Source of the DNA: a virus
Lineage: Duplodnaviria > Caudoviricetes
Virus record (IMG/VR): IMGVR_UViG_2061766007_000586
Coordinates: 160,001 to 224,000 of that record
Direction: 5' to 3' (one strand)
DNA: 64,000 bases
Shown here in pieces: positions 25,773-63,551 of the stretch. The first letter of the stretch is position 1; every line of letters starts with the position of its first letter. The notes beneath the pieces are model-generated. The model was given only the letters and a program-made list of their open reading frames with translations. It searched no databases and was not told the origin of the DNA. A program made the position numbers and the translations under genes.

Positions 25773-26441
25773 TTAGACAGCCGTCCAAGGACGCCAGCTA
25801 TTGTAATCTTTGTCAGTGAACTGTGAAGACAGAACAACAAAACTGTTCCGAATCTTCTGAACCAACTGTGCATATGCCGTTCCGTTCACGTCAAGCTGAT
25901 TTCTGAAATCAACATTGTGATTCTGACTGACATGAGAATTCAGTGACTTCCCATAATTGATAATTGAGCATCCTTTGCACGGAAGTAAAGAAGATCCGTC
26001 TCCGATTCCAACATCTTCGAGTTTCGAACCGCCCTTCATGCGAATCTTGGTATCAGTGATATACATATTCTTGATGGAACTACCACCATTCATACGGATC
26101 TCAGATCCGAATTCTCCGATGATATTTTCCACCGATGCTCCGTTCTGGAGAATCAGCCATCCACCACGCAGCCAAAGATTGTGAATAGAAAGCTTTTTGT
26201 TACCACCAATGATTTCGACGATAGAATTCGGTCCGATAAAGAGATCATTGATCTCGCCGCTTCTTACCTGAAGGAATGTTCTTCCTGCAAGTTCACAAAC
26301 ATTGAGACTTCCACCAAGCATGCAGATTTCTCGTTTGTCGAACACAACATGATCGAATGTTGTTCGTTTGATGACTTCTTTGTCAGTGGTGAGTACGTGG
26401 TCTTTCAGTGAAGACATCACGCGTTCGTTGGGAGTGAACAT
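25773..26441 (-). CDS. Beta-helix (AIDA-repeat-like) protein
   Basis: Repeating Gly/hydrophobic pattern (LRGGWLILQNGASVE, MNGGSSIK, MKGGSKLE). Confidence 0.55.
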   Translation of the reverse strand: MFTPNERVMSSLKDHVLTTDKEVIKRTTFDHVVFDKREICMLGGSLNVCELAGRTFLQVRSGEINDLFIGPNSIVEIIGGNKKLSIHNLWLRGGWLILQNGASVENIIGEFGSEIRMNGGSSIKNMYITDTKIRMKGGSKLEDVGIGDGSSLLPCKGCSIINYGKSLNSHVSQNHNVDFRNQLDVNGTAYAQLVQKIRNSFVVLSSQFTDKDYNSWRPWTAV

Positions 26442-51366: not shown

Positions 51367-51490
51367 ATAGAAAAAGGCGCAGTTGTGGCCAAAATCAACA
51401 AAGTCACAACTACATTTTAGGAATATATAGTTAAAGATATATTGAAAAAAATAACCTGCTCTCCATATGGAGAGCAGGTTACAAGATGGC

Positions 51491-54084: not shown

Positions 54085-54483
54085 TTAAAGTTGTATTGAA
54101 TATGTTTTCTTGTATTTCCATAAGCAGAGACCAAGAAAACATGAAATTAGCAGAGTCATAGTTGTAGAAGTAGATGGTTCACCAACTACCCATACTTCGA
54201 TTAATCCATCAAATGGATCTTCTGCAAAATCTACATTGTAAAAACTTTCAGTAGCATATCCAGCGTAGACTTCGTTTTCCGAATTAACCTTGAAAGTCTT
54301 TAATGAAAACTCTTTATTAAGTGCAAATGATTTAGAGAAGTCGTTTAATTTTGCTACATTAGGAATTACTATTCCTTGAGTTAAATCAATCTTATTATAT
54401 TTCGATAAAGCTTCTGTTAAATCAATTCCAAAAGAAGAAAAAGAAATAAATAAAAACAAAAAGAGAAATAATACTTTTTTCAT
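54085..54483 (-). CDS. Secreted protein with a PEP-CTERM-like C-terminal anchor
   Basis: Signal peptide MKKVLFLFL..; C-terminal GEPS + TM helix + KYKK. Confidence 0.65.
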   Translation of the reverse strand: MKKVLFLFLFLFISFSSFGIDLTEALSKYNKIDLTQGIVIPNVAKLNDFSKSFALNKEFSLKTFKVNSENEVYAGYATESFYNVDFAEDPFDGLIEVWVVGEPSTSTTMTLLISCFLGLCLWKYKKTYSIQL

Positions 54484-54504
54484 AATAGCCCCTCTTATTA
54501 AAAT

Positions 54505-55330
54505 AAAAAAAATCAAGCTAGGTGAGGCTTGACTAGTGTGTATTCACCAATAAGAGTTCATGACGCTCTTACCACACCTTTGTAATCATTCCATGAGCTT
54601 TCAGGTTTGATTACCGTTATCTACCACACAAAGGGACGACAATGTGGTATTGGTTGACTCCTTCCCTGTGGCAGCTGCTTTAACAGCTTTCTCGTCAACT
54701 TTTGAATTCATGCTCGTTTATCAAGGTGTTACCAGAACATAAACGAATGGAGAATTCCTTAGCCATTAATATTGGTGATTACACGTAGGCACTGTAATCA
54801 ATAGTTATTTTAACCCGCAGGTATGTTACTTCGATCCGGACCACGGATTTACTGAACACACAATCGCGACTATCTTTGCACAGGGATCTTAGTCCTGTAC
54901 CTAAGCTCTAGAAAACTGACCGTTCAAGCCCTGAATCGATCAATGGCAACTTATAGGACTTCAGCTTCAAGCAGGATAATTCGTTGGCAATTTCAATCTG
55001 AGCTGCAGCTAACAGCTTAGCCAATATATCTCGAAACCCATCTGCCTTTGCACAGATCCTGATAATGATCTATGCCATCTAGAAGTTCACCATGTTAGGG
55101 TGACATGATGGATGCTGTATGATCCCGTACCGTAGCCTTGCTAGTGGCCAAACGATACACAGCTTTGCTTATTTGCAGCTAATCCTAGGTATAAGCCAGA
55201 CCCAGGTCTACACTTTCTGAGTTGCAATCTCTAAGCGTAGAAATAATGAGTACAGTGATCAAATCGATATTGATCATTTGCATGGAGCAAGTTTTACAGG
55301 CCATTTAAACTAACTGTACTCCTCTAGTTC
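54505..55330 (-). ncRNA. Large, highly structured ncRNA candidate (~820 nt; GOLLD/ROOL-like size and context)
   Basis: No ORF of 60 aa or more, raised GC, more than 12 visible helices, terminal hairpin + T7, tRNA neighbourhood. Confidence 0.65.
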
Positions 55331-55420
55331 GGTCGCATAGTAGGATTCTTAGTTTAACCCACATCTGAAGTGCGTTCGCTTCATGTCTTCGCCCGTCGGT
55401 TACTTAGACGATATGCAACC
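55331..55420 (-). ncRNA. tRNA-like module A
   Basis: GGTTGCATA/TATGCGACC stem, TC-GTCT..AGAC D-arm, TGAAG/CTTCA arm, GTGGG/CCTAC T-arm with an enlarged loop. Confidence 0.6.
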
Positions 55421-55428
55421 ATTTTTTG

Positions 55429-55514
55429 TTGCTGATGAATATTCACAGGGATTCCAACCCTGGTTTCCGTGCTCGGCGTCCTGGCATTAGACGATGAGAT
55501 ATCCATTTCAGCAA
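55429..55514 (-). ncRNA. tRNA-like module B with a miniature anticodon arm
   Basis: Extended acceptor stem, TC-GTCTAATGCCAGGAC D-arm, CCG-AGCA-CGG, CAGGG-TTGGAAT-CCCTG. Confidence 0.6.
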
Positions 55515-55520
55515 TGTCTA

Positions 55521-55589
55521 CGAATATGGCGGGGCTGCTAGTCCCGATTTCCTGCTAAGGTGTCCTCGCTTTAGACGACATCATATCCG
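55521..55589 (-). ncRNA. tRNA-like module C with a miniature anticodon arm
   Basis: CGGATATG/CATATTCG stem, TC-GTCTAAAGCGAGGAC D-arm, CCT-TAGC-AGG, CGGG..CCCG. Confidence 0.55.
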
Positions 55590-55620
55590 TTTTTGACATT
55601 ATAGGAATATATACTTGAAA

Positions 55621-56223
55621 TTAGAATGAATATGGCCACTCGCCAAGCCATGTGATAAATCCAGTACGTTCAAATGCAGGACTGTCATGAACCAATACGC
55701 CAGTCGATGCATCAACGAAAATCAATCCTTGATTATTTCCGTAAATGTACTGAGGATTTGTATCATTCGGACCGAGTTGTTTTCTTAAGATAACTCGTTT
55801 CGTATGTGGCTTAGGATTCTGAGTCAACACTTTCAGATAAGACTCTTTAAATGTAATCGTGACCTTTTCCTTGATGATCGGAACATCTTCTTCAACAATT
55901 AAAGATGGGATCACAAGAACTTCATCCTTCTCTAAAGTATGACGTATCATTACAATATTTACATCATGACTCGTATTACCATCAGAGAGGACTTGAAATA
56001 CATTCGTAATTTCAGCTACATCACTTCCACCACCAATATCGATGTAATTTGCAAGAAGAATACCGCATTCATACCAGCGATAATTCTTGTAAACATCATT
56101 CATGTACTGGAGGTCTTCCTTATTGATGTCTTCAACATTTAAGATACGAGTTGTATCTTGCATTGAAGTGCATGCTGAAGTGAGAAGCATGAGTAATGAA
56201 GCAAGCAATAATAATTTCTTCAT
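55621..56223 (-). CDS. Lipoprotein with a PepSY-like C-terminus
   Basis: Lipobox LTSA-C; FVDASTG; ends with LGEWP; paralog of the next gene. Confidence 0.7.
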   Translation of the reverse strand: MKKLLLLASLLMLLTSACTSMQDTTRILNVEDINKEDLQYMNDVYKNYRWYECGILLANYIDIGGGSDVAEITNVFQVLSDGNTSHDVNIVMIRHTLEKDEVLVIPSLIVEEDVPIIKEKVTITFKESYLKVLTQNPKPHTKRVILRKQLGPNDTNPQYIYGNNQGLIFVDASTGVLVHDSPAFERTGFITWLGEWPYSF

Positions 56224-63436: not shown

Positions 63437-63551
63437 TGGTGGGACAGGTTGGACTTGAACCAACGACATAGGCGTTATCAGCGCAAAATAGTTGCTGTTA
63501 GTATCCGAGACGGATACATTTTACTTGCTCTACCTTCTGAGCTACTGTCCC
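63437..63551 (-). tRNA. trnI: tRNA-Ile(GAT) interrupted by a 39-nt insert in the 5' strand of the anticodon stem
   Basis: Removing 63485-63523 gives a perfect 76-nt tRNA with AGGCG-CTGATAA-CGCCT. Confidence 0.85.

Follow-up and report, generated by a model that had tools for sequence, protein, structure and literature searches.

Evidence for a new family of large structured RNA preceded by tRNA-like modules in a rumen jumbo phage

We analysed a 64,000-nucleotide (nt) stretch of viral DNA (hereafter the window), which corresponds to bases 160001–224000 of the 318,604-bp IMG/VR virus genome IMGVR_UViG_2061766007_000586. On its minus strand is a unit of about 1.1 kb in which three tRNA-like modules are followed by a large RNA of about 820 nt. 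A preliminary description of the window had proposed that this is a dedicated unit free of open reading frames (ORFs), with a large helix-dense RNA behind the modules. Our results uphold that proposal, and we consider it very probable that the unit is a real gene for a structured noncoding RNA (ncRNA) of a new family. We reach this verdict because of covariation in the fold, conservation among homologues, a promoter, a terminator, and the presence of the unit in RNA libraries. The large RNA belongs to a new family of large structured phage RNAs that is analogous to GOLLD and ROOL and is a member of neither.

The virus is a rumen jumbo phage with its own RNA polymerase (RNAP). Its sequence is present in bovine gut samples, its tail-tube protein has 23–31% identity to the counterparts in phiKZ-like jumbo phages, and RNAP beta- and beta'-like proteins are encoded in the genome. 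ARAGORN identifies 20 tRNA genes in this phage, mostly in one island that contains the RNA unit.

Homologues, fold, and transcription of the unit

The region at 54517–55620 (1,104 nt) is the longest gap in the genome without an ORF of at least 60 amino acids. On the minus strand from 55620 to 54517, the longest ORF that starts with ATG, GTG, or TTG has 41 amino acids, and recoding of TGA as W or of TAG as Q opened no long frame in the unit. The GC content inside the unit is 0.40–0.46, as compared to 0.28–0.31 downstream and 0.36–0.37 upstream. Both the lack of ORFs and the higher GC content were thus correctly noted in the preliminary description. The next longest gaps in the genome are 760 and 731 nt. 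The former, at genome positions 231194–231953 on the minus strand (71194–71953 in window numbering, outside the window), is the leader of a DUF2828 gene and has four copies of (A/C)CAGCAA and several T-arm-like hairpins; the latter is also outside the window, at genome positions 296411–297141.

Seven full-length copies of the unit from independent assemblies were available, namely that of the window and six from ruminant assemblies (loci L007, L013, L015, L017, L018, and L019). These were obtained from relatives of the upstream lipoprotein (38–57% identity) and the contigs that encode them, with L019 coming from one metagenome scan. In L007, L013, L017, and L018 the RNA is 91–96% identical at the nt level, and both flanking genes are 64–69% identical in nt and 52–57% in amino acids. 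Frames that are open in the window RNA are not conserved in the homologues, among which there are indels of 1, 2, and 4 nt. More distant phages have short forms (L008, L009, and L010) that match the large RNA over its first ~240 nt only, with ~70% identity. The short forms are behind a true tRNA-Gly(UCC) and their own copy of the promoter motif, and they end with a hairpin and U8 that act as the terminator; the long form has the counterpart of this hairpin in its interior. Because this segment, domain A, is expressed alone in more distant phages, we regard it as an independent module. Our covariance model of domain A (R1) gave 262–299 bits on the long forms and 195–198 bits on the short forms, and domain B was recovered by nhmmer in all seven long forms.

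Other searches yielded no further relatives. There was no match to the unit by blastn among 50,697 GenBank phages, no syntenic relative in IMG/VR when probed with the flanking proteins and the tail-tube protein, and no match to two invariant 20-mers in IMG/VR and GTDB genomes. No large-RNA domain has a paralogue elsewhere in the phage's own genome. A DNA pattern of the tRNA-Glu-type D-arm, tried as a homologue probe, matched only unrelated phage tRNA islands. A gapped DNA pattern gave 21 loci, none of which match model R1, so these are chance matches.

The preliminary description had proposed collecting homologues and testing them for covariation, and covariation was found. RNAalifold predicts 233 pairs from the seven long forms, with compensatory changes in 26 pairs by the count of the tool and in 27 by our own; there are 11 broken cells in this structure versus 87–120 when the partners are slid. 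To avoid circularity, the minimum free energy structure of the window sequence alone was tested on the homologues, where it has 24 compensatory cells versus 2–8 in the slid controls. In domain A (nine sequences), 26 of the 64 pairs are changed on both sides and 99.1% of the cells are paired, in an alignment that was fitted to the model and hence favours the structure; none of 500 shuffles reached these values and slid partners gave 1–5 pairs. Altogether, compensatory changes occur in about a dozen helices, including helices 24, 25, and 30 of domain C. A variant from an RNA library (X14) has a further compensatory change from A-U to G-C at 55317/55252. The consensus energy on the minus strand, –222.7 kcal/mol, is lower than that on the other, –178.7 kcal/mol, and the fold has 184 G-U cells; together these indicate that the minus strand is the RNA strand.

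All of the helices listed in the preliminary description exist, but covariation is found in only part of them. Those with compensatory changes are GAGTACAG/CTGTACTC, TGATCAA/TTGATCA, TCGTTTAT/ATAAACGA, TACCACA/TGTGGTA, and GTAATCA/TGATTAC. The helices CCTGGGT/ACCTAGG and TGATTACA/TGTAATCA vary on one side only, and GTTGAC/GTCAAC and TAAGAG/CTCTTA have no variation. The long-range 9-bp complement that had also been noted (54544–54552 with 54770–54778) is present in the window but is not conserved; its 5' partner falls in an indel-rich, hypervariable spot and is lost without compensation in most homologues. The best candidate for a pseudoknot is UUUGGCCA (alignment columns 181–188) with UGGCUAAG (columns 311–318), which has one compensatory pair and competes with nested helices.

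Transcription signals are found at both ends of the unit. The preliminary description had placed the promoter motif TATATTCC at 55611–55604 on the minus strand, where we find it within TATATATT[ACT]CTA. The genome has 12 copies of this longer motif, all of them on the minus strand, as compared to a mean of 0.48 and a maximum of 3 in 100 simulated Markov-1 genomes. The promoter is kept in all six aligned loci. Together with the TTTCAAG upstream and the ATG downstream, the motif agrees with the published early-promoter consensus of phiKZ and 201phi2-1 (TATATTAC; TTTRARR_BTATATTACDWHDGTG) (PMC7058600). Such motifs are near –10 of early genes transcribed by the virion RNAP (PMC7598289). The genome thus has both features of the phiKZ group, a recurrent AT-rich motif and genes for RNAP beta/beta'-like proteins, and the promoter motif suggests that the unit is likely to be expressed early. 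At the other end, the hairpin that had been described is confirmed and the T-run has eight rather than seven T residues. This terminator is almost unchanged across the seven homologues; L019, L007, and L015 differ from the others at single bases.

The unit is also present in RNA libraries. Sixteen runs from 14 studies have at least 45% of the sampled words in common with it; four of these (from 2017, 2019, 2023, and 2024) were compared at the contig level and the other 12 by word shares only. In X3 (2019), a contig of 1,102 nt is 100% identical to 54488–55589 and extends 17 nt beyond the U-tract. Contigs from X13 (2017) cover 54660–55315 and 55374–55585, and one from X19 (2023, size-fractionated) covers 54537–55534. 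A contig of 2,548 nt from X14 (2024) spans 57082 to 54562 and is followed by 30 nt of unrelated sequence, which points to a variant whose 3' end differs or to a chimera made in assembly. In X3 and X13 the contigs end at 55589 and 55585, respectively, with no loose end; these positions are 8–12 nt below the ATG of the promoter and hint weakly at the 5' end of the RNA. The contig depths (27.6 and 858) and the uncovered flanks in X3, X13, and X19 cannot be read as expression level or silence.

The tRNA-like leader

Each of the three modules is predicted to form a four-way junction in the window sequence, which agrees with their earlier description as tRNA-like, yet none is matched by a tRNA model. 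ARAGORN makes no call on them in the window, nor on their counterparts in eight homologous loci, and RF00005, the tRNA model of Rfam, does not match them at E≤10. The modules have an acceptor-like stem, a D-arm, and a T-arm, and they lack the 5-bp anticodon stem with a 7-nt loop and the 3' CCA. As a comparison, CCA is encoded by all but one of the 20 phage tRNAs (15 of 20 checked by eye) and by no module. In module 2, the D-arm (UCGUCUAA...AGGAC) and T-arm (CAGGGUU.GA.UCCCUG) are near-matches to those of the phage's own tRNA-Glu(UUC), and a hairpin of 3 bp and 4 nt (CCG-AGCA-CGG) is in the position of the anticodon arm. Judging by their sequence, the modules are evidently derived from a tRNA-Glu gene like that of the phage.

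The modules differ in how they vary between loci. Module 1 is the most variable; it is predicted as a four-way junction here and in L007 and has another fold in L017, L013, L018, and L015, with an insertion in L018 and L015. Module 2 is nearly invariant among the loci and is missing from L013. Module 3 folds as a four-way junction in all homologues, and in the alignment its acceptor-like stem has two compensatory changes and its anticodon-like arm has a hypervariable loop of 7–8 nt that is distinct in every lineage. It is duplicated in L015. Overall there are two modules in L013, three in most loci, and at least four in L015.

Two Rfam families of small RNAs from bacteria or phages resemble single modules. 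Module 2 aligns over its full length to the small RNA SpF41 (RF02435; 32.7 bits, E=0.0013, below the gathering cut-off of 52), which has a tRNA-like frame without an anticodon loop, a short hairpin in place of the anticodon arm, and a GGUU.GAAUCC T-arm. Module 1 aligns to the skipping-rope RNA (RF02924; 17.7 bits, E=0.11, below the gathering cut-off of 36.7), which is also tRNA-shaped without an anticodon loop. Unlike these RNAs, the modules here are in tandem and are joined to a large RNA, and the scores are under the cut-offs. No match to YrlA-type Y RNA (RF02553) was obtained in the Rfam scans.

Elsewhere, three unrelated IMG/VR phages (L002:1414-1833, L005:2641-3060, and L004:4878-5297) have tRNA-like genes with a tRNA-Glu-type D-arm and no ARAGORN call. 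By eye, those of L002 and L005 are split by inserts of ~100 nt that have common motifs, and in L004 the T-arm/acceptor half seems to be ahead of the D-arm half, so that the order looks permuted.

Known RNAs, a proposed mechanism, and alternative explanations

We scanned the 4227 families of Rfam 15 at the gathering threshold, and at E≤10 on the unit and three sub-regions. No family matches the large RNA, even in the sub-regions at E≤10; this includes group I and II introns, tmRNA (also not found by ARAGORN), OLE, HEARO, and raiA. The preliminary description had suggested either membership of GOLLD or ROOL or a new class. The first of these was not borne out, since both Rfam models miss the locus, and the second was. 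The ROOL model (RF03087, gathering threshold 99.1 bits) has no match in the genome at E≤10, although it also matched none of 14 control genomes and there is thus no positive control. For GOLLD (RF02032, gathering threshold 150 bits), the sole match in the genome has 11.9 bits and is at 26061–26226, not at the locus. We found no description of this RNA in the literature searched, and the largest survey of viral structured RNAs covers 29–151 nt only.

In spite of this there are resemblances. GOLLD is a multi-domain RNA of ~800 nt that is encoded by phages and prophages, has tRNAs adjoining it or sometimes in a linker, and is better conserved in its 3' part. The unit here is like it in size and context, the library variant differs mostly in the 5' 290 nt, and there are invariant runs in domains B and D; we take this as resemblance and not as homology. 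By contrast to GOLLD, the linked units here are anticodon-less mimics rather than real tRNAs, and the phages are rumen jumbo phages with their own RNAP. ROOL was first found in cow-rumen metagenomes and is a large, ornate, and abundant RNA near phage tRNA islands. The present unit likewise belongs to a tRNA island, in a jumbo phage whose sequence is present in bovine gut samples, but its large RNA has 820 nt versus about 580 nt, and it differs further by its tRNA-mimic leader and by a 5' domain that can be separated.

Two other systems provide partial analogies. The tRNA cluster of phage T4 contains the stable RNAs C and D as well as dimeric tRNA precursors, of ~120–140 nt, and RNAs C and D are released by host tRNA-processing enzymes. 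They resemble the RNA described here in that they are stable, do not decode, and are transcribed together with tRNA-shaped units from the tRNA region of a phage; they differ in that no 820-nt species is known from T4 and there is no sequence relation. In MALAT1-mascRNA and the TMER of murid herpesvirus 68, a non-aminoacylated tRNA-like module is joined to an ncRNA and is the handle by which RNase P or RNase Z defines an end of its partner. These are eukaryotic, nuclear RNAs; in MALAT1 the module is at the opposite end and in TMER it is linked to microRNA hairpins, so the analogy is one of mechanism only.

Taken as a whole, the unit is probably best explained as an early ncRNA gene with a tRNA-mimic leader from which the large RNA may be processed out as the effector. 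As soon as infection begins, the virion RNAP would make a primary transcript of ~1.1 kb. The tRNA-processing enzymes of the host would then recognise the acceptor/T-arm 'elbow' of the modules, with RNase P acting on the 5' side and a 3' tRNA nuclease after the module. The cuts would set free tRNA mimics that do not decode and a large RNA whose 5' end is fixed near 55330. This RNA would be the stable effector and would serve a factor of the host or the phage as a folded scaffold or take it up as a sponge, a role of the kind suspected for GOLLD and ROOL. We propose the processing at the modules tentatively, as a plausible model; the role as scaffold or sponge is possible but doubtful. More speculative still, and a long shot, is an RNA-only device that would act in the first minute of infection by self-assembly through palindromic loops or by an RNase P-like T-loop grip on tRNA elbows, while the anticodon-less tRNA-Glu mimics, covalently attached to it, trap a host tRNA-directed defence enzyme or load a Ro60-like DUF2828 particle. 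If true, this would be the first mechanism for an 'ornate' phage RNA of the GOLLD/ROOL type.

Few bacterial or phage RNAs above 500 nt are known to have a complex conserved fold (rRNAs, group II introns, GOLLD, ROOL, OLE, and raiA), and we know of no function for any of the phage RNAs among them. The unit adds a further family of large RNA, with features that lend themselves better to study. Its early-type promoter and its terminator are defined, a separable domain of 240 nt is its own gene in related phages, and the tRNA-mimic leader varies in copy number and can be traced to a phage tRNA-Glu; the unit is also present in many rumen RNA libraries. It offers specific RNAs that can be used in RNase P assays, in cryo-EM, and in tests of binding.

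Several observations weigh against the unit being a conserved RNA gene that is processed as proposed. The homologue set is shallow, with about four or five independent lineages, and the higher identity of the RNA relative to its divergent flanks could stem from recent recombination rather than purifying selection. The pattern is reversed in L015 (L015:6310-7693), where the flanks are 93–95% identical and the RNA is 84% identical. This indicates that the unit has a partly independent, mosaic history and that high identity is not by itself proof of constraint. The RNA of L015 has whole hairpins rewritten with compensation and an insert of ~48 nt at one site; this locus points to a mosaic history or a fast turnover of peripheral helices. 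The core of domain B and several long-range helices are invariant and thus give no covariation signal, and at least one long-range helix of the RNAalifold structure (columns 448–457/713–723) competes with a local hairpin that better fits the indels. The single-sequence fold of the 826 nt gives only a modest z-score by itself, –2.6 on the minus strand and –1.7 on the plus strand. Contigs from RNA libraries cannot show strand, ends, or level and could include DNA carry-over. They also span all of the module junctions, so that, if they are RNA, unprocessed molecules exist. Lastly, the downstream gene begins ~20 nt past the terminator in every long-form locus, which leaves no room for a promoter of its own, and the unit may therefore also be the leader of this gene.

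Carried further, this last point would make the 1.1-kb RNA mainly a cis-acting leader or attenuator of the downstream secreted-protein gene, with the terminator setting read-through, and the X3 contig that continues past the U-tract would fit with this. We think it very unlikely as the main role. A multi-domain fold of 820 nt with tRNA mimics is far larger than any known leader, domain A stands alone and is terminated before a different ORF in L008 and L009, and the terminator is nearly invariant. A role as leader and a role as ncRNA gene do not exclude each other. It has also to be considered that the modules, rather than being only processing signals, are Y RNA-like ligands of the Ro60-like DUF2828 protein of the phage or act as decoys, either for an enzyme of the host or for a tRNA-acting defence nuclease, and that the large RNA is tethered to or delivered by the particle. 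The same genome does encode a DUF2828 protein (a frame of 527 amino acids at about 229.6–231.1 kb), its 760-nt leader is dense in tRNA-derived elements with (A/C)CAGCAA, module 2 is followed by UCAGCAAC-AAAAAA, similar to the leader motifs, and GCUGAAAUG is common to module 2 and the leader. The change in module copies from two to at least four and the lineage-specific loop of module 3 are what an arms race might give, and an early promoter fits a counter-defence role. However, the shared motif is only 6–7 nt long and in module 2 is paired with UUGCUGA rather than single-stranded, the DUF2828 gene is ~15 kb away, and no TROVE domain was detected; we consider such ligands or decoys unlikely.

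The large RNA could in principle be a very divergent GOLLD, ROOL, RNase P RNA, or group I or II intron that the covariance models missed. Its size, phage origin, tRNA-island context, rumen source (as for ROOL), and apparently better conserved 3' part (as for GOLLD) would agree with this. There is also a local match of 33 nt (25/33, including GGUG.GGUAAGAGCG) between the invariant part of domain D and the CR-II/III region of E. coli RNase P RNA (rnpB 166–198). Yet this local score is reached by 4 of 300 shuffles and is a weak lead only; the RNase P models of Rfam give no match, and the RNase P-like words are in a different order. With no Rfam match at E≤10 for the whole unit or its sub-regions, and with ROOL and GOLLD missing the locus in genome-wide scans, we judge a divergent member of a known family to be most improbable. 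Barely credible, in our view, is a decaying tRNA array together with a spacer that has no function or a gene that is dead, all of which recombination would have carried along. The modules are clearly of tRNA-gene descent and the history of L015 is mosaic, as decay would have it, but compensatory substitutions maintain about a dozen helices, a dedicated promoter and terminator are conserved, no frame is conserved, and the unit is in RNA libraries. Decay is thus disfavoured, and a structured ncRNA gene of a new family is the reading that we retain.

Feature coordinates and further observations

The coordinates of the unit, its parts, and its neighbours are given in Table 1. Of the two flanking genes, one codes for a lipoprotein and the other for a signal-peptide protein, so neither gives a clue to a partner of the RNA.

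Table 1. The RNA unit, its parts, and the flanking genes, in window coordinates.
Feature	Position	Strand	Description	Basis or remark
RNA gene (promoter end to terminator)	55597-54505	minus		promoter, fold, terminator
Putative early-type phage promoter	55597-55620	minus	TTTCAAG-TATATATTCC-TATAATG	immediately past the upstream lipoprotein gene's stop codon
Module 1	55521-55589	minus	cloverleaf-shaped	tRNA-Glu-type D-arm, 3-bp/4-nt mini hairpin for anticodon arm, atypical T-like arm
Module 2	55429-55514	minus	anticodon-less apparent tRNA-Glu derivative	extended stem UUGCUGA...UCAGCAA
Module 3	55331-55420	minus	tRNA-shaped	9-bp acceptor-like stem, D-arm, long anticodon-like arm, T-arm with 13-nt loop
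Domain A	55086-55327	minus	~240 nt, 10 helices	stand-alone gene in L008, L009, L010
Domain B	54894-55084	minus	most conserved core	~100 nt (55046-54945) almost invariant in seven sequences
Domain C	54652-54894	minus	several hairpins	hypervariable expansion site ~54771-54777, inserts of 0 to ~48 nt
Domain D	54535-54651	minus	helices 33-36	two hairpins (4 and 5 compensatory pairs), then invariant hairpin GGUGUG-GUAAGAG...CUCUUAU...CACAC
Intrinsic terminator	54505-54534	minus	stem of 8 pairs, loop of 8 nt, U8	consensus scan
Upstream gene	55621-56223		200-aa lipoprotein	signal peptide ending LTSAC
Downstream gene	54085-54483		signal-peptide protein	C-terminal hydrophobic segment, then KYKKT

Unpaired positions of domain A contain self-complementary words at 55302–55299, 55268–55263, and 55227–55222. 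The first, GGCC in a junction, is CGCG in L007 and L013, where the palindrome is retained. The second, AUCGAU in the P3 loop, keeps its core UCGA in all sequences, and the third, UUGCAA in the P4 loop, is unchanged in nine sequences. Going by these letters, the palindromic words could mediate loop-loop self-association.

Two other places on the minus strand of the window deserve mention. A second copy of the C-variant of the promoter motif (TATATATTCCTAAAATG) is at 51427 and heads a short, ORF-poor stretch that reaches to ~51128. This stretch may be another early ncRNA; in sequence it resembles none of the large-RNA domains. At 63440–63551, where ARAGORN is silent, the Rfam tRNA model matches 112 nt (47.2 bits) that consist of a tRNA body and an insert of ~39 nt.

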